Source: Chitinophaga pinensis (GTDB lineage: Bacteria; Bacteroidota; Bacteroidia; NS11-12g; UBA955). From it: a DNA stretch of 64,000 nt. The stretch is taken from NCBI GenBank assembly GCA_945888525.1, contig CAMDAF010000006.1, positions 19,489-83,488 of the forward strand, read 5' to 3'. Both the position numbers and the translations under genes were made by a program. Positions 2,653 to 35,300 of the stretch are shown one piece after another. Below the pieces are notes generated by a model, which did not search any database, was not told the DNA's origin, and worked only from the letters and a program-made list of their open reading frames with translations. The first letter of the stretch is position 1. Every line of letters starts with the position of its first letter.

Positions 2653-3020
2653 GGGGCTGACCGGAATTGACGGGTAGAGCGAATGGGGTGTAAGCATGTA
2701 GAGCTTTGTTTGCTGGCTCTTTAATCTCAACACTCAAAACTTCAAGAGGCGAAAATAACTTCGCAATGGCTGCTTAATCAGTGATTAGGTAAATTTCCAT
2801 ACACTGTCGTTGCCCTTGTCTGGGTCGGTAACGGGTTACGGTGTTCGACATACCCGGGTATGCAAGCAGTGTTGCAGCGGCTGTTTGCATCACAAGTAGC
2901 ATAAGGTTGTGGCAAGGTCTGAAACCAAGCTTTCACAACTCGAAAAATAATGGTTTCTAAACATGTAGAAAGCGCCATCATTTCCTAGTTCGGACGAGGG
3001 TTCGATTCCCTCCAGCTCCA
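2653..3020 (+). ncRNA. ssrA: tmRNA (transfer-messenger RNA, SsrA)
   Basis: The 5' end GGGGCTGA...GACGGG and the 3' tRNA-like end GGACGAGGGTTCGATTCCCTCCAGCTCCA form an acceptor stem. An internal tag reading frame ggc gaa aat aac ttc gca atg gct gct taa encodes GENNFAMAA-stop. No protein ORF is plausible here. Confidence 0.85.
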
Positions 3021-3039
3021 CAAAAACATTCATTTCAAT

Positions 3040-3070: not shown

Positions 3071-3113
3071 TAAAACAGCGTTGAAAGTCCTCTTTCATAA
3101 GCAGGATTAAAAC

Positions 3114-3450
3114 AAAAAAAGCTTTGAAAAAGCGCATTGAAATGAATGTTCTTGTAAGGCCCACCACCTCGGGAACAACAAAGTTATTCCCCTAATATCC
3201 TCATTCACTCTCTAGATGGGATTAAAAAAAGCTTTGAAAAAGCGCATTGAAATGAATGTTCTTGTTAGGCTCCCCAATTAGGGAACAACAAAGTTATTCC
3301 CCTTTGAACTTCACATTCACTCTCTACATGAAACAAAAAAAAACTTTTGAATAATAGCGCATTGAAATGAATGTTCTTGTTAGGCCCCCACCTCGGGAAC
3401 AACAAAGTTAATCCCCTTTGAATTTTAACCACAATCTCTACAAATGTTAC
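3114..3450. repeat. Tandem array of three ~110-115 bp repeats (about 85% identical) downstream of ssrA
   Basis: The unit is AAAAAAAGCTTTGAAAAAGCGCATTGAAATGAATGTTCTTGTTAGGCCCCCACCTCGGGAACAACAAAGTTATTCCCCT..., starting at about 3114, 3224 and 3339. Each unit carries the hairpin GGGAACAAC-AAA-GTTATTCCC. An inverted match (ACATTCATTTCAATGC) sits at 3028-3045, directly after the tmRNA 3' end. Confidence 0.7.
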
Positions 3451-3668
3451 ACCCCTATGGGGTTAAATCCTGAAACGCTTACTGCAACGAAGTGAAGCGT
3501 TCTCACGAGCTCGCTAGTAACTTAGCGTCAGCGTTCTCACGACCAGAGGGAGTACACCAACAAAATGTATCCATTTTAGCATTCGTTTTAATCAAGCATC
3601 ATCGAAAAACTACCCCCTAAACGCTAGACCCTATCCCCTAATTCATCCGTTTCCATTACCTTTGCTCC

Positions 3669-4868
3669 ATGTCCATCTCAATCGGTATCATTCGTGAAGA
3701 AAAACAACCCGCTGATAAACGCGCCGCCTTTACGCCAGCGCAGTGTGTTGATTTGAAGGCGCGATACCCTCAATTGCAAATCTTTATCCAATCGTCGAGC
3801 GACCGTTGCTTTTCTGATGAACTATACACCAAAGTGGGTGTTGAAATAAAAGAAGACCTGAGCAATTGCGATTTTTTATTTGGCATAAAAGAAGTTCCTG
3901 CCGATAAATTGATTGCCAATAAGACCTATTTGTTCTTTTCACATACAATCAAAAAACAAGCCCACAACAAAGACTTGATGCACGCCCTAATTGAAAAGAA
4001 AATCAAACTCATTGATTACGAAACCTTGCGTTGGAAAAACGGCGACCGTATACTTGGTTTTGGCCGCTTTGCTGGTGTAGTTGGCGCTTACAATGGCCTT
4101 ATCACTTGGGGTAAAAAACACAAGACTTTCGACCTTAAACCGGCCTACCAATGCAGCGATTATGCAGAGCTAAAACGCGAGCTTAAAAAAGCTGTTTTAC
4201 CAAATATAAAAATCATTCTTACTGGCAATGGCCGTGTGTCGTTGGGTGCACTAGAATTGTTAAACGAAGCTGGTATCAAACAGGTAACCCCAGCGGATAT
4301 TTTAACCAAGATATTTGCAGAACCCGTATTTGCGGTTTTGTTAAGTGAAAACTTATACGAGCGCATCGATGGTAAAGCCTATGACAGAAGCGATTTTCAC
4401 CACGATCCAACCCGTTACCGTTGTGTGTTCAGATACTATTTACCGCAATGCGATTTGTTGATTAATGGCATTTACTGGGACGAGCACATGGACCGCTTGT
4501 TTTCTGAAAACGACACCCGTTTAAGCACCTTTAAAACCAAAGTGATTGCCGACATCAGTTGTGATGTAAATGGCGGTGTTCCTATCACTTTAAAAGACAC
4601 CAAAATATTTGATCCTGTATTTGGGTACGACCCCATGTCAATGAGCATGTGCGAGCCGTATTTAGACCATACCATCGATATTATGGCGGTGGGCAATCTA
4701 CCAACTGAATTACCCCGCGATGCCAGCGAAGGCTTTGGCGCTATGCTCATCGAATATGTACTACCAGAACTCCTCAAAATCGAAAGCACCGTGATCGAAA
4801 ATGCCTGCATTTGCAAAGACGGAAAGCTGACGCATGAGTATGCGTATTTGACGGACTATGCGTATTAG
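3669..4868 (+). CDS. Saccharopine dehydrogenase (L-lysine-forming, LYS1-like), AlaDH/PNT fold
   Basis: The N-terminus IIREEKQPADKRAAFTP, and the stretches FGIKEVPAD and FGRFAGVVGAYNGL, parallel yeast Lys1 (HLRAETKPLEARAALTP, IIGLKEMPE, FGFYAGFAGAALGV). Confidence 0.55.
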   Translation: MSISIGIIREEKQPADKRAAFTPAQCVDLKARYPQLQIFIQSSSDRCFSDELYTKVGVEIKEDLSNCDFLFGIKEVPADKLIANKTYLFFSHTIKKQAHNKDLMHALIEKKIKLIDYETLRWKNGDRILGFGRFAGVVGAYNGLITWGKKHKTFDLKPAYQCSDYAELKRELKKAVLPNIKIILTGNGRVSLGALELLNEAGIKQVTPADILTKIFAEPVFAVLLSENLYERIDGKAYDRSDFHHDPTRYRCVFRYYLPQCDLLINGIYWDEHMDRLFSENDTRLSTFKTKVIADISCDVNGGVPITLKDTKIFDPVFGYDPMSMSMCEPYLDHTIDIMAVGNLPTELPRDASEGFGAMLIEYVLPELLKIESTVIENACICKDGKLTHEYAYLTDYAY

Positions 4869-4990
4869 GGTCTAGGGGTTAGGGTCTAGGGTTTAGTAAT
4901 TAAACATGATGCATCTTTATTTCGTTATCTAATTTTATCGCGTTTTATACGAGGGTTTAGGGTCTAGGGGCATAGGGTTTAGTATGTAAT
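4866..4990 (+). repeat. Two tandem copies of a G-rich repeat element with canonical G-quadruplex spacing (GGG-TCTA-GGGG-TTA-GGG-TCTA-GGG)
   Basis: The copy at 4868-4891 begins at the stop codon of the upstream gene. The second copy, 4953-4977, is GGG-TTTA-GGG-TCTA-GGGG-CATA-GGG. Both are followed by similar ~50-bp AT-rich tails, making a tandem duplication of about 85 bp. Confidence 0.6.
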
Positions 4991-5126
4991 TGTGATGCTT
5001 AATTGTTTCGTTTTTTATAGTTTTAACATGACCTTTTTATATATAGAAGAAATCATAATTATTATCTTCTTTTAAATTGGGAGATTCAACTCTTAAAAAA
5101 CGTAAAGCTCAAGTTTCCTCAATAAA

Positions 5127-5187
5127 AACTAAACCCTAACCCCTACTTGCCCATCGGAGTGAAACGCAGGTGGGTACCCTAGACCCT
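5127..5187 (-). repeat. Copy of the ~62-bp G-rich element (AGGGTCTAGGGTACC...GGCAAGTAGGGGTTAGGGTTTAG), minus orientation
   Basis: Its reverse complement aligns with the element at 6391-6452. It lies immediately 3' of the minus-strand gene 5236-5877, in sense orientation. Confidence 0.6.
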
Positions 5188-5235: not shown

Positions 5236-5877
5236 TTACTCCCTCCATATAAACCTCACCAACACCAATCCCATAACCACAATCAAAACATTGAAGGCCA
5301 TAAGGACCAATAGGTCGGGAAGCAGGATCGAGAAACCGAGTTCATCGATGGCTTTTTTGCCAGCCTTGGAACCAATTAAAATCAAAGGCAAAATAACGGG
5401 AAAAGTTAAGACCGGCAATAAGACACCAGGATTATCGGTTTTGGTGGCTATGCTGCTGCTAATGGTAAAGATAGATGAAATACCTATGCCAGTAACCAGG
5501 CAGACCAATAAAAAACTAGGACCGCCTTCGCTCACTTGACCATGCATTAAGGTGAAAACCGCGTAAGCGAATAAGGTAAAGACAATCATTAAGAGCGCCG
5601 AACAAATTAAACGCGCGGCTAAAAAGTCGACAGGCGAACATATTTGATGCCAAAAAACGAAATTGTTTTTGCGCATTTGGATGAAGGATTTGGAGATGCC
5701 TTGCAGGGTGGTGAACACCACAACGATCCAGAAAATCGCACTAAAATGGGGCCTGTCCATGCCTGGCAAGCTTAAAAAAGTAATGAGCACAGCAGTGAAG
5801 ATGTAAAGAAAAGCACCGACAATAGCGTATTTGCCTTTCCATTCTTCTCTCAAAAAAAATTTCACCATTTCTACCAT
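5236..5877 (-). CDS. Polytopic membrane protein (about 6 TM), possibly a CcmB-like ABC-type heme exporter permease
   Basis: The 213-aa protein is mostly hydrophobic helices. Its size and topology resemble CcmB. The family assignment is uncertain. Confidence 0.35.
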   Translation of the reverse strand: MVEMVKFFLREEWKGKYAIVGAFLYIFTAVLITFLSLPGMDRPHFSAIFWIVVVFTTLQGISKSFIQMRKNNFVFWHQICSPVDFLAARLICSALLMIVFTLFAYAVFTLMHGQVSEGGPSFLLVCLVTGIGISSIFTISSSIATKTDNPGVLLPVLTFPVILPLILIGSKAGKKAIDELGFSILLPDLLVLMAFNVLIVVMGLVLVRFIWRE

Positions 5878-5930
5878 TGTGTCAAAGCTAAAAAATTGTA
5901 CTTTTGCGCAAAAGTAATATAAACATTTGT

Positions 5931-6386
5931 ATGCTCAGCAAAATAGAACATTTATCGTCAGCAGAAAAAAACTTAATTGTTAATGCACCTCTACTAATTT
6001 CAGCCTTGGTGTCTGGTTCTGATGGTGAATTCACCCCTAGCGAAATCCAACAAGCCGTTAAAATCATCCACATCAAAACCTATTCTGAAACCCGCGATGT
6101 GAGTGGTGTATACAAAACAGTTGACGGACACACTGAAGAAAGCATAGAAATGTTAATTAGCTCTTTGCCTGAATCAACGACCGAAAGAAACGAAATGTTA
6201 ATCTCTATGCTGAAAGGCTTAAATGATGTATTTCCGAAACTAGACAACGTCTTCGCACACGATTTATACAGCAGTTTGAAAGAACTTGCATTTTACGTCA
6301 GCAACGCTGGCGACGACCTAGGCCTAAGTATCCGTTCTGAGCAAGAAAAAGAAATGGCGCAGTTGTCATTTTTGGACGCACAGTAA
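5931..6386 (+). CDS. Hypothetical protein
   Basis: The track ORF starts at TTG 5904. The first ATG is at 5931 (MLSKIEHL...). No recognisable motif was seen. Confidence 0.45.
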   Translation: MLSKIEHLSSAEKNLIVNAPLLISALVSGSDGEFTPSEIQQAVKIIHIKTYSETRDVSGVYKTVDGHTEESIEMLISSLPESTTERNEMLISMLKGLNDVFPKLDNVFAHDLYSSLKELAFYVSNAGDDLGLSIRSEQEKEMAQLSFLDAQ

Positions 6387-6390
6387 AGCC

Positions 6391-6452
6391 AGGGGCTAGG
6401 GTACCTACCTTCGTTTCACTCATGCAGGCAAGTAGGGGTTAGGGTTTAGTTT
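6391..6452 (+). repeat. Copy of the ~62-bp G-rich element, plus orientation, immediately 3' of gene 5931-6386
   Basis: AGGGGCTAGGGTACCTACCTTCGTTTCACTC...GGCAAGTAGGGGTTAGGGTTTAG is about 85% identical to the inverted copy at 5127-5187. Confidence 0.6.
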
Positions 6453-6572
6453 TGTACAAAACATCCAACCTAACTTCTCTATTTTCTTATTTTAAAGTTT
6501 CTTTATTTAATTTCCTATAGGGAAAACAAAAGGCATTTAGATATTGTTTATGTACGTCGATTACCGAAATCC

Positions 6573-6622
6573 AAACTATACCCTATCCCGATAGCTTTCG
6601 GGAGCTATACCCCTAAACCCTC
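6573..6622 (-). repeat. Variant G-rich element (AGGGTTTAGGGG-hairpin-GGGATAGGG) immediately 3' of the GT2 gene, sense orientation
   Basis: The minus strand reads AGGGTTTAGGGGTATAGCTCCCGAAAGCTATCGGGATAGGGTATAG. A central hairpin (GATAGC...GCTATC) is flanked by two GGG pairs. Confidence 0.5.
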
Positions 6623-8190: not shown

Positions 8191-9057
8191 TTAATTTCTA
8201 TTGTCCATACCCCACAACATTTTGTGGCGCAAGGTTTTTAAGAAAGTATCGCCTTCAAAACGCACCAAATTGATGTGAAAATCGGCTTTGCGAATCGCTA
8301 TTTGTATGGTTTGATCGATGGTAACCGAACGGCTGTCTAAAGAGGCTAAAAAATTGGCGCTGCGGCCTTCTATTTCAAAACTCAAAACTTGATCATCTGG
8401 AATAATAACCGGCCTTACATTTAGATTGTGCGGGGCAATTGGCGTAACCACCAAACTGGAGGATTTTGGGAACAATATAGGACCACCGCAACTCAAAGAG
8501 TAACCTGAAGAGCCGGTTGGTGTTGATACAATAAGTCCATCGGCCCAATAGGAATTCAAAGGTTCTCCATTTAAAAAGGCATGAACGGTAATCATGCTAC
8601 TGGTTTCTTTTTTATGCAAAACAAAATCGTTGAGCGCATAGTTAAAACGGAACAAATCGGCGTTGCTTTCAAGTTGTAGCAGCGAGCGTTTGTCTAATGA
8701 ATAATTACCCCCTTTAAGTTCCTTAAATGCCTGAATAAACCCGTCGGTGGATACATTGGCCAAGAAACCCAAACGGCCAGTGTTTACACCAATAATTGGC
8801 ACTTGACTATCGCCTGTTATTTCCACTGCACTAAGTATGGTACCATCGCCGCCCACACTAATCAAAAAATCAAGTTCAGCCGATTTCTTGCTGAGGTATT
8901 CAAACTCTGGCAATCCATATTTATTTTCAAGACAAGAAGCCAAATGGCTATGCAAATAAAGATCAACCTGCTCGGAAAGCAAGAAAACAATTATGTCATC
9001 CATCAACTTTACTTGTTCGGGCGTGTTAACGACTTTGGTGAATAAACCGATTTTCAT
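8191..9057 (-). CDS. nadK: NAD+ kinase
   Basis: It has the GGDGTIL motif and an NDFVL region. The 288-aa length is typical of PpnK/NadK. Confidence 0.9.
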   Translation of the reverse strand: MKIGLFTKVVNTPEQVKLMDDIIVFLLSEQVDLYLHSHLASCLENKYGLPEFEYLSKKSAELDFLISVGGDGTILSAVEITGDSQVPIIGVNTGRLGFLANVSTDGFIQAFKELKGGNYSLDKRSLLQLESNADLFRFNYALNDFVLHKKETSSMITVHAFLNGEPLNSYWADGLIVSTPTGSSGYSLSCGGPILFPKSSSLVVTPIAPHNLNVRPVIIPDDQVLSFEIEGRSANFLASLDSRSVTIDQTIQIAIRKADFHINLVRFEGDTFLKTLRHKMLWGMDNRN

Positions 9058-9175
9058 ACGCTGGCAATTTTAACTTTTACAAAACCCTGATAAGTCTTAT
9101 AAAAATACAAATTTACGGAATTGGGAGGTAGGAAGCAAACCCCCTGAATGACCTAGTAGATCATTGGTTTGCTCA

Positions 9176-9262
9176 CGCGCCCCGATGACCGACGTGGAGC
9201 TCTTGTGGCGCTTCGGCCACAAAGCCGCAGCGAAGCGGAGACAAAGGACATGGAAAGGCGCC
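9176..9262 (-). repeat. GC-rich ~87-bp repeat element (copy 1) with conserved hairpin TTGTGGC-GCTTCG-GCCACAA, 3' of ndk in sense orientation
   Basis: Its reverse complement is about 90% identical to 25643-25729. GC content is about 60% against an AT-rich background. The track ORF 9097-9279 overlapping it is not conserved in copy 2. Confidence 0.6.
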
Positions 9263-9319
9263 ATAAAAAAAGCACCCACTTTCGTAGATGCTTTCTTTAG
9301 AATTATTTTCTATAATGGT

Positions 9320-9736
9320 TTAGAAACGCTCGAATGACGAGAAAAAGAAGTTGCCTTCGATTGCTGCATTCTCGTCGCTATCGCTGCCGTGGATTGCGTT
9401 TGCGTCAATACTTACTGCATATTTTTTACGGATGGTTCCTTCTGCTGCGTTTGCAGGATTGGTTGCGCCGATTAAGTTTCTGAAATTTTCAATGGCATTG
9501 TCGCCTTCTAAAATTGCAGCAACAATAGGGCCGCTGATCATAAAGTTTACCAAATCTCTGAAGAATGGACGCTCGCTGTGAACGCCATAAAATGCCTCAG
9601 CTTGCGCTTGGGTTAATTGTAAATATTTCATCGCTTCGATTTTAAAGCCTGCAGCTAAAATATCGTCGATGATTTTTCCAGTGTGGCCATTTGCTACTGC
9701 ATCAGGCTTGATCATGGTGAAGGTTTTGTTGGTCAT
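9320..9736 (-). CDS. ndk: Nucleoside diphosphate kinase
   Basis: [23 protein letters not shown]...NAIHGSDS is canonical NDK and includes the active-site His region. Confidence 0.95.
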
Positions 9737-9875: not shown

Positions 9876-10766
9876 TTAATCTTTTTGTTTGGTGTAAAAA
9901 CGCTCCCACAAATCTTGAATAATCCCATCTTTCAGTCCGTGGTATGGCGTTAAAATATCTGTTATATTGGTGCGTTCAAAAATATCCATATAAATCCTAC
10001 CGGCCACATCGATTACCTCGGCGCGGTCTGGATTCAACTTTAAATGGTAAACCCTTTCATGCAAATCGATGGCTTCAATGTCTTCGGTTAACTCAACCAA
10101 TTTTTGCAGTTTCAAATAATTGCCTTGGGTCACACCAGCAAGTTCTCCAAATTTATGAATGTTTCCTCCTGTACCTACGCCCTTTAATTTGGGCACCCAG
10201 GTTACATGCTCTTTAATCCATGCATGCATTTTATCGTATTCTTCAGGTTTGATTTTATTTTCTCTTGCCCTTACCGTTCCTATGTTAAAACTCTTTCCAA
10301 CCAAAGCTTTGTTCTCTTGAATTAAGGTCAACTCGGTACTACCGCCTCCAACATCCACGTGCAAAAATGTTTCTGCTTTGGGCAGTAAATGCAAAAAGGC
10401 ATTCATTATGAGTTTGCTCTCTGCATTGCCAGTAATAATATCGATGGTAATACCAGTTTCTTTCTTAATGAGCTTAACTATCTTATCTGAATTCTTCGCA
10501 TCGCGCATGGCGCTTGTTGCGCAGGCTCTATAAAAATCAACATTGTAAATGTCTAACAACAAACTGAAAGCTTTTACCGCTTTGGTTAACAAGTCTAATT
10601 TCTTTTTACCGATTTCTTTGGTGCTAAACACATCATCACCCAAACGGATTGGCAAACGGGTAAATTCAACCTTTTTCCATTCAGGCTTTAGTGTATCTTC
10701 TTGTAAAGGCCTTGATATCAAAAGCCTTACTCCGTTGGAACCAATGTCTATTGCACCGAATTTCAT
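9876..10766 (-). CDS. Ppx/GppA family phosphatase (exopolyphosphatase / pppGpp phosphohydrolase-like)
   Basis: MKFGAIDIGSNGVRLLI is the characteristic Ppx/GppA N-terminus. The track start at 10775 is a TTG. ATG 10766 is more likely. Confidence 0.7.
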   Translation of the reverse strand: MKFGAIDIGSNGVRLLISRPLQEDTLKPEWKKVEFTRLPIRLGDDVFSTKEIGKKKLDLLTKAVKAFSLLLDIYNVDFYRACATSAMRDAKNSDKIVKLIKKETGITIDIITGNAESKLIMNAFLHLLPKAETFLHVDVGGGSTELTLIQENKALVGKSFNIGTVRARENKIKPEEYDKMHAWIKEHVTWVPKLKGVGTGGNIHKFGELAGVTQGNYLKLQKLVELTEDIEAIDLHERVYHLKLNPDRAEVIDVAGRIYMDIFERTNITDILTPYHGLKDGIIQDLWERFYTKQKD

Positions 10767-22765: not shown

Positions 22766-25549
22766 ATGGCAGAAATAAGATTAGGAAAAGCAGCATCGGA
22801 ATTCAATGTAAGCACGCAAACGATTATAGAAAGTTTGCAAAGGAAAGGTTTTGCAATTGACAACAAACCAACGGCGAAGCTTACGGAAGAAATGTACGGC
22901 TACATTGCAGGCATTTTCTCTTCTGACAAAGAAGCAAAAGAAGAGTCTAAATCATCAGGACTTAAATTAAAAAAACGTGAAGATGTTGTCAAGGTTGAAG
23001 AATTCTTCAACAAAAAGAAAGAGGAAGAAAATCAAATTGAGGCAGAACCTGAGCCTGAGTTCTTCATAAAAAACGTTAGTTCAGAAGTAATTGCGCCCCT
23101 TGCGAAAGAAAAACCTGCACCGGTGAATAAGCCAGCTGTAGAAGTTGTAAAATCTAAGCCAATCAATGAACCTGTTGTTTTTGAAACACCTGTTGTTGAT
23201 CCTTTGCAGGAAGACAAAATTGAAAAAGCAGGTTTAACCGTCAAAGGCAAAATCGAATTGCCAAGTGCCGGTGGCAGAAAAAGAAAAGAAAACAAAGCGC
23301 CAGAAGCTGAGCCAATCATTGTATCAAAAGCGTCTGAGCCGTTGATCATCTCGAATCCAATTGAGGGAAATATTACAGACGCTCTTGCTCCAGAAATTGA
23401 TGAAAGAGAATTGGTCAAAGCCAACCTAGTTGAATTGGACGGTTTAACCATCATGGGTAAAATTGAGTTGAGGCCAGATCCAGTAATGAAGCCTAAATTC
23501 CTTACCCCGGCTGAAAAACTAAATAGAGAAAAACGCAAACGCAAGTCAGGTCCTCAAAAAGTTAACATCCAACAAGAAATCAAGGTTAACAGACCGAACT
23601 TAGGACAGAGACCTAACGAGCCTAAAAAAGAAATTACCCAAAAGGAAATTCAAGATAAACTGAAGAAGACATTAAATAAAATTGACTCTTCAGGACGTGG
23701 TAAAACAAATAAATCTAAGTTCAAAAGACAAAAGAGAGACGACCACTATCAAGCTAGAAGCGTAGAGAAAGAAAGAATGGAGCAGGAAGAGTTAATTCTG
23801 AAAGTAACAGAATTCTTAACTGCAAACGATTTAGCTAAAATGATGAATGTTCAAGTAACACAAGTCATTTCAACCTGTTTCTCTTTAGGCCTTATGGTGT
23901 CGATTAACCAACGTTTAGATGCTGAAACCATTACCCTTGTGGCTGATGAATTTGGATTTGAAGTTGAGTTTGTTGATGCCCAAGACACCATCGCAATTGA
24001 TGAGGAACAAGATGATCCAGAAAAAACCATCCCACGTCCTCCTATTGTGACCGTTATGGGTCACGTTGACCATGGTAAAACTTCCCTATTGGATTATGTG
24101 CGCAGTGCCAACGTAATTGCTGGTGAAGCAGGTGGTATCACCCAACACATTGGTGCTTATGAAGTACAATTACCAAAAGGACAAAAAATAACTTTCCTAG
24201 ATACACCTGGTCACGAAGCCTTTACCGCTATGCGTGCCCGCGGTGCTAAAGTAACCGATATAGCTGTTATTGTAATTGCAGCAGATGACAACATCATGCC
24301 TCAAACGCGTGAAGCAATCTCTCACGCTCAAGCAGCAAATGTACCAATGATTTTTGCCATCAATAAAATAGATAAAGATGGTGCCAATCCTGAGAAAATA
24401 AGAGAAGAACTATCTGCCATGAACATTCTTGTAGAAGAATGGGGTGGCAAATTCCAAAGCCAAGAGATTTCAGCCAAAAAAGGTTTGAACATCGACAAGC
24501 TTTTAGAAAAAATATTGTTAGAAGCTGAACTCCTTGAGTTGAAAGCAGACCCAGAAAGAAAAGCAAAAGGCACCATTGTTGAAGCCCGTCTTGACAAAGG
24601 ACGCGGTGTTGTAGCAAGTGTTTTGATTCAAACTGGAACCTTAAGAGTTGGCGACCACCTAGTTGCTGGTTCTCATTATGCAAAAGTGAAAGCTTTGTTT
24701 AACGAAAGAAACCAGAGGGTTGAGTTTGCAGGACCATCAACACCCGTTAGTATGCTTGGTTTCTCCGAAACCCCATCTGCAGGTGATCCACTAAATGTAT
24801 TGCCTACTGAAGACGAGGCAAAAGACCTAGCAAACAAACGCGAACAATTGATGCGCGAACAAGGCATCAGAACAACCAAACATATTACCCTCGACGAGAT
24901 TGGAAGACGTCTTGCTATAGGTAACTTCAAAGAACTTAACCTAATCATAAAAGGTGACGTAAATGGATCAGTTGAAGCATTAAGCGATTCGTTGCTAAAC
25001 CTATCCAATAAAGAGGTTATGGTTAAAGTAATTCACCGTGGTGTCGGTCAGATCACAGAAAGTGATGTATTGTTAGCCTCTGCCTCAGATGCAATCATCA
25101 TCGGTTTCCAAGTTAGACCAAGTTCTAGCGCCAAGAAAATTGCTGAAACTGAACAAATTGATATCAGACACTATTCGATTATTTACCAAGCCATTGACGA
25201 AATCAAGTCGGCTATAGAAGGCATGTTAAGTCCTGAAATCAAAGAAACCATTATTGGTAACGTTGAAGTTCGTGATGTGTTCAAAATTACCAAAGTTGGT
25301 ACAATCGCAGGTTGTATGGTTACTGAAGGTAAAGTTACCAGAAATGCTAAAATCCGCTTGATACGTGATGGCGTTGTTGTACACCAAGGTTCGTTAGACT
25401 CTTTAAAACGTTTCAAAGACGATGTAAAAGATGTAGTTAAAGGCTTTGAATGTGGTATCTCTATTAAGAACTTCCAAAACATCGAAGCTGGCGACAACAT
25501 AGAAGTCTTCGAAGAAACATCAATCGCTAGAAAATTAGATTCTCTTTAA
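22766..25549 (+). CDS. infB: Translation initiation factor IF-2
   Basis: The 927-aa protein has the G-domain motifs [17 protein letters not shown] and NKID, and an IF-2 C-terminal domain. Confidence 0.95.
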
Positions 25550-25642
25550 TTTTACAATAAGGACATTCTAAGGGATGTCTCTCTATTTATTGCATAAGAC
25601 TGTAATGGGAGTTTAGTGATATATAAACATTCAACTTTTTTG

Positions 25643-25729
25643 GGCGCCTTTCCCGAGCCCTTTGTCTGCGCTCCGCTGCGGCTTTGTGGCCAAAGCGCCA
25701 CAAGAGCTACACGTCGGTCATCGGGGCGC
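25643..25729 (+). repeat. GC-rich ~87-bp repeat element (copy 2) 3' of infB in sense orientation
   Basis: GGCGCCTTTCCCGAGCCCTTTGTCTGCGCTCCGCTGCGGCTTTGTGGCCAAAGCGCCACAAGAGCTACACGTCGGTCATCGGGGCGC is about 90% identical to the reverse complement of 9176-9262 and carries the same hairpin. Confidence 0.6.
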
Positions 25730-25766
25730 AAAAAGAGAGTGAGAATGAAAGTGAATGCGGTTTGAA

Positions 25767-26333
25767 TTAAGCCATCAAATTTCCCTTAAAGATCTTAACC
25801 GCGATGGCAATCAGTATCACACCAAAAAATTTACGGATAACCAACAAGCCGCCTTTGCCCAATATCTTTTCAATTTGCTTGGTTGATTTTAACACCAAAT
25901 AAACGACAACTAGGTTGATGATTATTCCAACATAAATATTCACAGCTTGAAATTCAGATTTTAAAGACATAATGGTTGTTAAGGTACCGCTTCCAGCTAT
26001 AATTGGAAATGCGATAGGTACTATGCTTCCCGATTTTGGATCAGGATCTACCTTAAATAAATCTCTGCCCAAGACCATTTCCAAACCAATAATGAAGATA
26101 ACAATTGAACCGGCTAAGGCAAAGGAGTGGATATCAATACCCAATAAATTCAAGAAATTTTCACCCACAAAAAAGAACAAAGTCATCAGCAAGCCCGCGG
26201 TTAGCGTTGCCACTTCAGACTGTATATGTCCAATCTTAGTGCGCAAATCGATAACCACTGGAATAGATCCAATGATATCAATTACAGCAAAAAGCGTAAA
26301 TGAAACGGTTAAGATTTCTTGAAAATTTAGCAT
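25767..26333 (-). CDS. MarC family (UPF0056) integral membrane protein
   Basis: The N-terminus TVSFTLFAVIDIIGSIPVV and the 188-aa length are typical of the MarC family. Confidence 0.65.
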   Translation of the reverse strand: MLNFQEILTVSFTLFAVIDIIGSIPVVIDLRTKIGHIQSEVATLTAGLLMTLFFFVGENFLNLLGIDIHSFALAGSIVIFIIGLEMVLGRDLFKVDPDPKSGSIVPIAFPIIAGSGTLTTIMSLKSEFQAVNIYVGIIINLVVVYLVLKSTKQIEKILGKGGLLVIRKFFGVILIAIAVKIFKGNLMA

Positions 26334-31098: not shown

Positions 31099-33000
31099 TT
31101 AAGGCATATTGGCCTTTAACTTCATTAAGAAACCAATTTCACTTTCCTTAAGAAATCTCCACTTACCTCTTGGCAAATCTTTCTTTGTAAATATACCCAT
31201 GCTTACGCGGTCAAGTCTCTCAACATCGTAACCCAAATGTTCAAACATTCGTCTTACGACACGGTTTTTACCACTATGGATCTCAATGCCTACATTGCGT
31301 TTGTCTTCGTTGTCAACAAAGGCAACTGCATCAGCATGTACAACGCCATCTTCCAATTCAATACCTTCAACCAATTTATCCAAGTCGGTTCCACTTACTT
31401 TCTTATCCAATACGGCGTGGTAAACTTTCTTAATTTGGAATGATGGATGCGTTAAGGCTTGCGCCACATCTCCATCATTGGTTAGCAACAATACACCTGT
31501 TGTATTTCTGTCCAAACGACCAATTGGGTATACCCTTTGAGGGATTTTATCGGCCAATAAATCCAAAACCGTTTTACGTCCTTTTTCGTCATCTGTGGTC
31601 GTTATAAAATCTTTTGGCTTATTCATTAAAATGTAAACAAATGGCTCGGGTAAAATTTTTCTTCCGTCAAATTTAACCACATCCCCTTTCTTTACGCGGT
31701 GTCCCATTTCTGTCACAACCGTGCCATTGATATTTACCAAACCTTGTTTGATCACATCATCAGCCTCTCTTCTGCTGCAAACACCAGAATTGGCAATATA
31801 TTTATTCAAGCGAATGTCATCGGGACTGTCTTGGGTACCCGTTAATTCCTTCTTTCTATCTGAGTATGATTTTCTAATTTGAACCTGCGGATCGTATTTT
31901 GGTCTGAATGGCTTACTTTCTTCACCCTCTGGTTTAAAAGGTCTTTTTGGTCCTTGATCATCTGCATTTCTGCGGTAGTTGTTGGATTTTCCAGCATAAG
32001 AACTGTCTCGGCTATCGCCTTCTCTCTTTTGATAAGGCGCTTTGCCGTCAGCATTGCGGTCGAAACCAGGCTTTTTATAGCCCCCTTCGCTTGATTCTCT
32101 TTTTTTGTAAGGCGAATATCCACCGCCTTGATCACCTGATTTAGAATAAGCTGACTTTTTATAGCCCCCTTCTTCTGAAGCACCTTCGCGCTTTTTGTAT
32201 GGAGAGTATCCGCCACCATCGTTAGATCCAGGTTTCTTGTATCCACCATCTCGGGCGCTGTCTTCTCTTTTCTTATATGGCGCTCTGCCGTTGCCATCTT
32301 CTGAATTTCTTGGGTAACTTGGTTTCTTAAAATCAGAATCTCCATATCCACCTTCCCGTTTTTTGAACGGAGGTCTGCTTCCACCATCTTCAGATGTTCT
32401 TGGGTAACTTGGCTTTTTGTATCCTGTATCTCCAAACCCTCCTTCTTTCTTTTTGTATGGGGGTCTGCTTCCGCCTTCTTCTGAATTTCTTGGATAGCTT
32501 GGTTTCTTAAAATCAGAATCTCCATATCCACCTTCCCGTTTTTTGAACGGAGGTCTGCTTCCACCATCTTCAGATGTTCTTGGGTAACTTGGTTTTTTGT
32601 ATCCTGTATCTCCAAACCCTCCTTCTTTCTTTTTGTATGGAGGTCTGCTTCCACCTTCTTCAGAATTTCTTGGATAGCTTGGTTTACGGGTATCTGAGTT
32701 AAATCCTCTATCTTCACGGTCGCTGCCATATCCCCTGCCAGCTGGTTTTACTCCTCGGCTATCAGGACTTTTGCGGCCATATGGTTTATTGCCATCGCGA
32801 GGAGGCAAGAAACGGGGCGGTGCTAATTCATTTGAATCGTCATTGGTTCTTGGTTTTTTGAACGAAGAATCTCTTCCTCCAAATTTCGAATTTGAATCTG
32901 AACGGCCGGCAGTTTTTTTATAAGAAGCAGCTGGCTTTCGACCATCTGATTTCTTAAAGGGTCCTGAAGACTTTCCCGAGTTATTTTTACGTAAAGGCAT
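31099..33000 (-). CDS. rluB: RluB-family 23S rRNA pseudouridine synthase with ~390-aa N-terminal K/R/G/Y/P-rich tandem-repeat extension
   Basis: The C-terminal half carries an S4 domain (IRLNKYIANSGVCSRREADDVI) and an RsuA/RluB catalytic core (LDRNTTGVLLLTNDGD). The N-terminal half consists of KKPSYPRNSEEGGSRPPYKKKEGGFGDTGY-type repeats. Confidence 0.75.
   Translation of the reverse strand: MPLRKNNSGKSSGPFKKSDGRKPAASYKKTAGRSDSNSKFGGRDSSFKKPRTNDDSNELAPPRFLPPRDGNKPYGRKSPDSRGVKPAGRGYGSDREDRGFNSDTRKPSYPRNSEEGGSRPPYKKKEGGFGDTGYKKPSYPRTSEDGGSRPPFKKREGGYGDSDFKKPSYPRNSEEGGSRPPYKKKEGGFGDTGYKKPSYPRTSEDGGSRPPFKKREGGYGDSDFKKPSYPRNSEDGNGRAPYKKREDSARDGGYKKPGSNDGGGYSPYKKREGASEEGGYKKSAYSKSGDQGGGYSPYKKRESSEGGYKKPGFDRNADGKAPYQKREGDSRDSSYAGKSNNYRRNADDQGPKRPFKPEGEESKPFRPKYDPQVQIRKSYSDRKKELTGTQDSPDDIRLNKYIANSGVCSRREADDVIKQGLVNINGTVVTEMGHRVKKGDVVKFDGRKILPEPFVYILMNKPKDFITTTDDEKGRKTVLDLLADKIPQRVYPIGRLDRNTTGVLLLTNDGDVAQALTHPSFQIKKVYHAVLDKKVSGTDLDKLVEGIELEDGVVHADAVAFVDNEDKRNVGIEIHSGKNRVVRRMFEHLGYDVERLDRVSMGIFTKKDLPRGKWRFLKESEIGFLMKLKANMP
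31830..32830. repeat. Coding tandem repeats (180-nt unit, two near-identical copies plus degenerate copies) inside the rluB-like 5' half
   Basis: Nucleotides 32290-32470 and 32470-32650 are nearly identical. The purine-rich repeats also keep a second frame open (track ORF 31842-32729). Confidence 0.7.
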
Positions 33001-35174: not shown

Positions 35175-35300
35175 GAAAAAAGGTCGGCAAAGCTATTGAT
35201 TTTTTCATGGCCTCAAGACCATAAAAAAAGGTCGGCAAACTACTGATTTTTTAATGGTCTCAAGACCATAAAAAAAGGTCGGCAAAGCCGACCTTTCTTA
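35175..35300. repeat. About 2.5 tandem copies of a 47-bp hairpin-containing repeat between ahpC and rplS
   Basis: The unit is AAAAAAAGGTCGGCAAAGCTATTGATTTTTTCATGGCCTCAAGACCAT, with the palindrome ATGGTCTCAAGACCAT. The last partial unit forms GGTCGGC-AAA-GCCGACC, followed by a T-run on the minus strand. Confidence 0.6.
35277..35300 (-). terminator. Probable terminator of rplS
   Basis: The 7-bp GC stem GGTCGGC/GCCGACC is followed on the minus strand by TTTTTTT, 35 nt downstream of the rplS stop. Confidence 0.5.

Follow-up and report, generated by a model that had tools for sequence, protein, structure and literature searches.

The element and its two gaps

The window analysed here, a 64-kb stretch of DNA, carries two copies of an 86-87-nt element that we call E, one between ndk and nadK and one between infB and a marC-like gene. 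Read along the minus strand, the first gap runs from ndk (9320-9736) through a terminator, two bases, E, a 37-nt tail and a promoter to nadK (8191-9057). Along the plus strand, infB (22766-25549) and its terminator are followed in the second gap by 62 nt that close with a T-run, then by E, by the reverse complement of a module S (rcS) and by six bases that lead to the stop codon of the marC-like gene, which lies on the minus strand (25767-26333) and is convergent with infB. The E strand that reads GGCGCC...GGGGCGC is referred to as E+ and its opposite as E-. The features of the two gaps are as follows.

9108-9139, minus strand: likely nadK promoter of the Bacteroidetes type (TTTG, 20 nt, TAAATTTG), read from the sequence
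9140-9176, minus strand: 37-nt tail (GTGAGCAAACCAATGATCTACTAGGTCATTCAGGGGG), found at the ndk-nadK locus only, where it comes and goes with E
9177-9262, minus strand: E copy 1, 86 nt, reading GGCGCC...GGGGCGC on this strand; from inverted-repeat, profile and identity searches
9199-9228, minus strand: invariant 30-nt core of copy 1, with hairpin CTTTGTGGC-N6-GCCACAAGAG
9264-9299, minus strand: ndk intrinsic terminator (A-run, 9-bp G-U-containing stem, U7), directly 5' of E; context, outside E
25561-25580, plus strand: infB intrinsic terminator, 62 nt upstream of E (dG -10.4, z -3.05); context, outside E
25624-25642, plus strand: T-run and possible degenerate second copy of S (AAACATTCAACTTTTTTG), 5' of E; a weak match, its score equalled by 8 of 1000 shuffles
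25643-25729, plus strand: E copy 2, 87 nt; from the same three kinds of search
25678-25707, plus strand: invariant 30-nt core of copy 2, reading GTAG-CTCTTGTGGC-GCTTTG-GCCACAAAG on the minus strand
25730-25760, plus strand: rcS, 31 nt, purine-rich (AAAAAGAGAGTGAGAATGAAAGTGAATGCGG), joined to the 3' end of E

The two copies are 90.7% identical over their 86/87-nt cores and make up the longest inverted repeat of the window (94 nt, 85%), with GC contents of 65.5% (copy 1) and 66.7% (copy 2) against 38.8% for the window as a whole. A preliminary description of this DNA had reported two GC-rich copies of about 87 bp, some 90% identical as reverse complements, and had placed them correctly to within 1 nt. 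The hairpin that it pointed out, TTGTGGC-N6-GCCACAA, is present in both copies, and also in 16 of 17 variants found elsewhere; in the core it forms a 9-bp bulged stem with a 6-nt loop, preceded on the opposite strand of copy 1 by GGAG at what we term the GTAG position. A scan of the window with the 30-nt core pattern, allowing up to 3 mismatches, matched at the two E sites only (0 expected from 100 shuffles), and an nhmmer profile search of the 64 kb found no third or partial copy.

The ndk terminator has a predicted dG of -19.6 kcal/mol (z -7.95), and both copies of E lie outside the ndk and infB transcripts as these are bounded by their predicted terminators. It is literally true that, as first described, the same strand of E follows the stop codons of both genes, but there are two cases only, each with a terminator between stop codon and element, and the apparent link with high expression and with 3' ends comes down to coincidence between these two copies. 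As seen from marC, at the far end of the second gap, E comes after the stop codon and before the sole hairpin that resembles a terminator, in the window and in one relative (L006), and is probably part of the marC 3' UTR. The putative nadK promoter, called with the Bacteroidetes consensus, is kept in loci with and without E and forms the right edge of the variable gap.

Distribution and variation of E

An exact scan for the hairpin core in one genome per species returned seven true copies of E in four freshwater 'Bacteroidia bacterium' metagenome-assembled genomes (MAGs), together with two chance matches; a metagenome scan added three copies, and viral, plasmid and phage collections gave no match. 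More versions of the loci, at strain and species level, were obtained through contigs encoding the Ndk and MarC proteins of the window and homologues of the latter, whose closest named relatives are in Chitinophagaceae and Bacteroidia MAGs; related loci are given here by L-numbers. Taken together, E occurs at nine independent genomic sites in at least five species-level genomes and in many strain assemblies. The seven sites other than ndk-nadK and infB-marC are all intergenic and unrelated, with neighbours that include CvfB/AIM24, L17, an SDR and a GH1 glycosidase. The E-bearing gaps are convergent, tandem and divergent, and the genes adjoining E have no functional theme in common. Copy number is low, at two in the window and one or two exact-core matches per representative MAG, counts that are lower bounds given that the MAGs are incomplete; some 170 kb of extra syntenic sequence contained no further copy. 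Thus the search for additional copies that the preliminary description had proposed did yield them, while its companion, a search for compensatory base changes, yielded none.

A fuzzy search of about 720 kb for separate sub-modules of E found nothing except a diverged relative at L046 (3906-3981), which has the same TTTTGGGCGCC start and CTGCGCTTCGCTCCGG block with a different 14-bp hairpin (CGTTTGCCGCAAAA...TTTTGCCGCAAACG). Its sequence suggests that E may belong to a wider superfamily invisible to exact-core scans.

The ndk-nadK gap was compared among loci that encode an identical Ndk protein, and takes four forms. In the window, L014 and L020 the terminator is followed by E and the tail; in L016-19 and L022 an extra module of about 119 nt stands between terminator and E; in L015 there is a 29-nt filler and no E; and L013 has, in place of E, a perfect 45-nt hairpin with a 20-bp stem (TTCCCGAGAAGGATTCAGCCGCAGGGCGGCTGAATCCTTCTCGGG, 10477-10521). 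In L021, E and the tail follow an unresolved run of N. A very small insertion polymorphism of its own is formed in this gap by a 16-nt palindrome that L016 and L022 have and that L017-19 lack at the corresponding position. L013 appears to be the same contig as L006, which comes from the same source sample, and that genome would therefore carry E at infB-marC while lacking it at ndk-nadK. Filled and empty ndk-nadK gaps differ by replacement of the whole gap rather than by a clean insertion.

At infB-marC, the gaps of the window, L006 and L008 are orthologous by blastn, and differ in arrangement: in the direction of infB the window has E+ and then rcS, L006 has S and then E-, and L008 has S, E+ and a degenerate rcS. 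E is absent from this gap in L033, whose MarC is 95% identical and whose gap measures 132 nt, in L040-42, which have a 71-nt gap with a plain bidirectional terminator, and in L034-39, L044 and L045, which have three extra genes between marC and infB. Two of the insertions in these last eight loci are ORFs of about 70 aa; the third gene belongs to the MauE family in L034-39 and L044, in place of which L045 has other ORFs that carry no Pfam annotation, and the gap therefore gains and loses genes too. The tie of E to ndk and infB that had been proposed dissolves on these comparisons, the element being missing beside an identical Ndk and missing or inverted at infB-marC in close relatives. Within the clade of the window its orientation is the same in 10 of 10 assemblies, with no inversion. 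Each difference in presence could also be explained without transposition, through deletion or the homologous exchange of entire gaps.

Seventeen distinct sequences of E share the sharp ends GGCGCC...GGGGCGC, with unrelated flanks beyond them. Variation is concentrated in a few multi-state columns and 64 of the 87 columns are invariant; the most variable one lies inside the GTAG position, where the E- strand shows all four bases (GTAG in 7 of the 17 variants, otherwise GGAG, GAAG, GCAG or GGTG), and inside the core variation is restricted to the spacer (G/A). Three different internal 1-nt indels occur among the variants, and the two window copies differ by indels at two places; because of these, E is non-coding. 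The ATG frame of copy 1 also meets a stop (GTGTAG) in copy 2, so that a coding role is ruled out on both counts, as the preliminary description had concluded. The terminal inverted repeat measures 5-6 bp (GCGCC/GGCGC); counting the flanking T-run and A-run extends it to about 12 bp in copy 2 and L006. T makes up 64% of the 8 nt immediately 5' of E+, for a background of 31-40%. No direct repeat that might represent a target-site duplication flanks any of 11 copies.

Pairwise identity among copies is 85-96%, whether they come from one genome or from two, with no clustering by genome, and this may be set against the third codon positions of infB, which are only about 75% identical between the window, L006 and L008. 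Very low copy number combined with strong conservation across species is the one feature of E that selfish-repeat models explain poorly. Differences within the clade of the window number 2-4 in the 87 sites of E, compared with 9-11 in the remaining 93 sites of the gap and 0-5 in 300 sites of adjoining coding sequence; the lower divergence of E relative to the rest of the gap (Fisher p 0.06-0.1) would leave room for a host function. The element is thus constrained at the sequence level without being frozen, a pattern compatible both with turnover from a source copy under constraint and with selection acting directly on the majority of positions.

Companion modules and RAYT genes

E is often joined to other modules in these gaps, which contain S, X, R and F, small palindromes and TAGGG runs, combined in varying order and orientation. 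In the window, L006 and L012 (two distinct loci) the 3' end of E runs directly into S, which in L008 lies inverted on the 5' side; a bracket of inverted 31-bp S copies around E is seen in L008 alone, apart from a weak one in the window. Element F (68-76 nt), 97% identical across three species (L001 2211-2278, L008 827-902 and L011 1191-1258), always lies on the 3' side of E+, at a distance of 130-300 nt and in matching orientation, and contains a nested hairpin, CCCTGCA...ATTGTT-GCTTTG-AACAAT...TGCAGGG; it is absent from the window and has no Rfam family. Family R lies beside E in L006 (481-584) and L001 (2030-2117), and an R-type repeat (GCAACGAAGTGAAGCGTTCTCACG...GGGAGTACACCAACAA) occupies window 3484-3570. 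Further modules are common to E-bearing gaps and window 3484-3570, 4867-5187 and 6391-6621.

Other repeats of the window may be listed here as observations in their own right. Telomere-like TAGGGTT/TAGGGTC runs occur at 4866-4985, 5126-5146 and 6434-6452, and a 63-nt inverted repeat (5125-5187 and 6391-6453, 87%) surrounds two ORFs (5236-5877, minus strand, and 5904-6386, plus strand); pieces related to these are found in L001, L002, L004, L012 and L047. Members of a small palindrome family, CCCGATAGCT(A/T)TCGGG, lie at window 6588-6606, at about 10496-10513 in L016/L022, at L001 1780-1795 and at L004 5505-5526. The tmRNA gene (2653-3023; Rfam, 119.8 bits) is followed at 3088-3442 by three tandem repeats of about 110 nt with AAAAGCGCATTGAAATGAATGTTCTTGT and GGGAACAACAAAGTTATTCCCC, and there are tandem arrays of 90-nt units (4-5 copies) at 32262-32711, of 63-nt units (5-6 copies) at 1324-1701 and of 47-nt units (two copies) at 35176-35269.

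The lineage encodes Y1 transposases of the RAYT or IS200-like type, recognized by Pfam Y1_Tnp and the HUH motif VIMPNHIHLV.

L043, 1119-1637: Y1 transposase gene
L046, 1751-2281: Y1 transposase gene
L047, 2480-3013: Y1 transposase gene

The first of these, whose homologues are named 'REP element-mobilizing transposase RayT' by JGI, occupies the marC-infB gap, where the window, L006 and L008 have E. The contigs that carry its close homologues are never longer than 5 kb, and inverted, GTAG-tagged family R repeats (GTAGTTGTTTAC...GTAAACAACTA) bracket these genes. Searches of the flanking sequence found no E at any of these three genes or at a more distant RAYT, L048, four loci in all and each on a short contig; the repeats that flank L048 belong to other families, and the diverged relative of E in L046 lies 1.6 kb from the transposase gene there.

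Interpretation and comparison with known systems

E is a non-coding repeat, polymorphic among relatives in presence and orientation, that sits in mosaic gaps shared with other modules. The reading that we consider probable is that it is a low-copy, non-autonomous REP/MITE-like DNA repeat of one lineage of freshwater Bacteroidia, with a core kept by the recognition of a trans-acting protein. Among the three roles originally proposed, that of a REP-like repeat is indeed the best fit. E would be one module of a short repeat family that populates the gaps between terminators and promoters, where, these being transcriptionally silent, it may be tolerated; it would be acquired, lost and turned round as DNA within short evolutionary spans, and its frequent joining to S, X, R and F would produce mosaic gaps like those of BIMEs or BOX. 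The invariant 30-nt core may be maintained by protein recognition, for which the RAYT/IS200-type Y1 transposase of the lineage is the leading candidate mobilizer and a site-specific recombinase the alternative. We infer, in addition, that E moves by transposition, with deletion and homologous gap exchange as no more than part of the story, and that it serves no function in the host. Against this explanation stand the lack of a target-site duplication, the minimal terminal inverted repeat, the very low copy number and the finding of no RAYT flanked by E.

The other proposed roles belong to an account in which E is a host-selected cis-acting or small RNA, namely a 3'-UTR stabilizer, a backup terminator or insulator, or a 3'-derived sRNA, acting upon read-through. 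The shared strand after ndk and infB, the probable place of E in the marC 3' UTR of the window and L006, the central hairpin kept in 16 of 17 variants, and conservation far better than that of synonymous sites and, within the clade, somewhat better than that of the neighbouring gap all speak for it; yet the position beyond both terminators, with no U-tract following, tells against a role for E at ndk and infB as a terminator, as a stability element or as an sRNA derived from the 3' UTR. Apart from the upstream infB terminator, the terminator scan flags a single weak site, at the 5' edge of the element, and in most copies there is no U-tract directly after E on either strand. On both strands the predicted folding of both copies is no better than that of dinucleotide shuffles (z -0.06 to -1.6, with minimum-free-energy z-scores of -1.1 and -0.06 for the two copies), and the two window copies fold differently. 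RNAalifold, applied to both strands of 10 and then 17 variants, gave a covariation term of about 0 with 0-1 compensatory pairs and a consensus that is unstable, changing between the two sets; the candidate column pairs (25/36, 32/50, 36/72 and 25/67) mix compatible and incompatible states, and the central hairpin, which does not vary, is uninformative for or against RNA. The RNA roles first suggested find no support in folding or in covariation. The marC 3' UTR exposes one strand of E in the window and the other in L006, close relatives lack E in these gaps, and no consistent promoter could be read upstream of the copies on either strand. Rfam has no match to E, either at the gathering threshold over the whole window or, meaningfully covering E, at E<=10 at both loci; the matches obtained were the tmRNA elsewhere in the window and partial ones limited to the terminators. 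We consider an RNA of this kind unlikely. Two more specific likenesses were also rejected: a hammerhead-like reading of CCGAUGA...GAAA on the E- strand, made by eye, has stems I and III missing and U4 changed, with Rfam silent, and a group II intron fragment or class C terminator targeting meets a 5' end that is not GUGYG, no domain V and no Rfam match.

Conservation of sequence rather than structure, with a core that varies in the spacer (G/A) only, speaks instead for E as a DNA site for a host protein, its inverted arms of about 11 bp (GGCTTTGTGGC / GCCACAAGAGC) and 6-bp spacer having the layout of a tyrosine-recombinase site or operator. Such a site, which we regard as doubtful, would account for the inversion of E or E+S between species at one locus, and the flanking T-run and A-run would lengthen its terminal inverted repeat; we are equally doubtful that E mediates site-specific inversion or exchange of intergenic cassettes, or binds a nucleoid protein or regulator. 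No recombinase or invertase gene adjoins any copy among the neighbours, all 10 assemblies of the clade show the same orientation, about 57 conserved nt outside the core are left over, and a regulon is unlikely since the neighbouring genes have no common function. That E is an inverton, a phase-variable switch flipping within populations to alter the expression of its neighbours, seems very improbable indeed: the element does have short inverted repeats at its ends, and its orientation relative to S and the flanking genes is opposite in L006 to that in L008 and the window, but that orientation is fixed throughout the clade, E contains no Bacteroidetes-type TAnnTTTG promoter, no invertase gene is nearby, and at ndk-nadK it lies upstream of the promoter and outside any transcript. 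There is also a small chance that E is host-maintained in a less familiar way, its palindromic 11-6-11 core being a recombinase or DNA-binding site that drives a cassette 'shufflon' of terminator-promoter gaps in these streamlined freshwater Bacteroidia, or E being a new sequence-constrained class of RNA. If either were so, it would explain a low-copy element that stays about 90% identical where synonymous sites are about 25% diverged.

E belongs with the small dispersed repeats, a subject well studied in Proteobacteria and pneumococci and hardly at all in environmental Bacteroidia. It reveals an uncultured freshwater lineage with a rich modular set of intergenic repeats and RAYT transposases, in which terminator-promoter gaps turn over much faster than the surrounding genes. 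E and its companion modules are useful strain markers, and probably explain why assemblies break near RAYT genes. They also caution against calling conserved GC-rich intergenic blocks sRNAs.

Among known systems, REP/REPIN sequences, which are mobilized by RAYT transposases, have several features in common with E. Like them E is extragenic, GC-rich relative to its surroundings and placed after gene 3' ends, has a hairpin core with, in some copies, an unpaired GTAG abutting the stem, and differs in presence among relatives in a lineage that encodes RAYT genes. In the 7 of 17 variants that keep the tag, the E- core GTAG-CTcTTGTGGC-N6-GCCACAAAG has the same anatomy as the GTAG-tagged REP (PMC3733652). 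It differs from them in that the conserved unit is 87 nt rather than a palindrome of 20-40 nt and the GTAG is not conserved; REPs number tens to hundreds per genome and E very few; a REPIN is an inverted doublet forming a long hairpin, whereas E lacks any such symmetry between its two halves, and pairing in it is limited to the ends (GCGCC/GGCGC) and the central hairpin; and a cognate RAYT is flanked by its own repeat, whereas the four RAYT loci seen here are flanked by other families. High-copy REP and MITE families in general look unlike the low-copy E. With BIMEs of enterobacteria and BOX of pneumococci E shares its place as one module among several in mosaic gaps, but there is no sequence relation or regular REP alternation, the modules are longer and each has few copies. 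MITEs such as Correia of Neisseria and ERIC/IRU resemble it in size class (about 90-150 bp) and in being non-coding and intergenic, and at one locus E may be bracketed by the 31-bp inverted S (L008, and more weakly in the window); unlike them it has no target-site duplication, a minimal terminal inverted repeat, a GC-rich rather than AT-rich composition and no known parent insertion sequence. Invertons of Bacteroidales also have short inverted repeats at the ends and both orientations at one locus, for E in different species, but E has no internal promoter, no adjacent invertase and no orientation polymorphism within a clade. Intrinsic terminators consist of a GC-rich hairpin and a U-tract, the latter missing after most copies of E, and 3'-UTR-derived sRNAs lie inside the parent mRNA before its terminator and are conserved with the gene, whereas E lies beyond terminators and is absent from orthologous gaps. 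A dif/Xer identity was rejected too, the 11-6-11 layout being the only thing in common with known dif sites, to which the core has no likeness in sequence. No described family was found that matches E, and we conclude that it is probably a new repeat of a known, REP/MITE-like kind.
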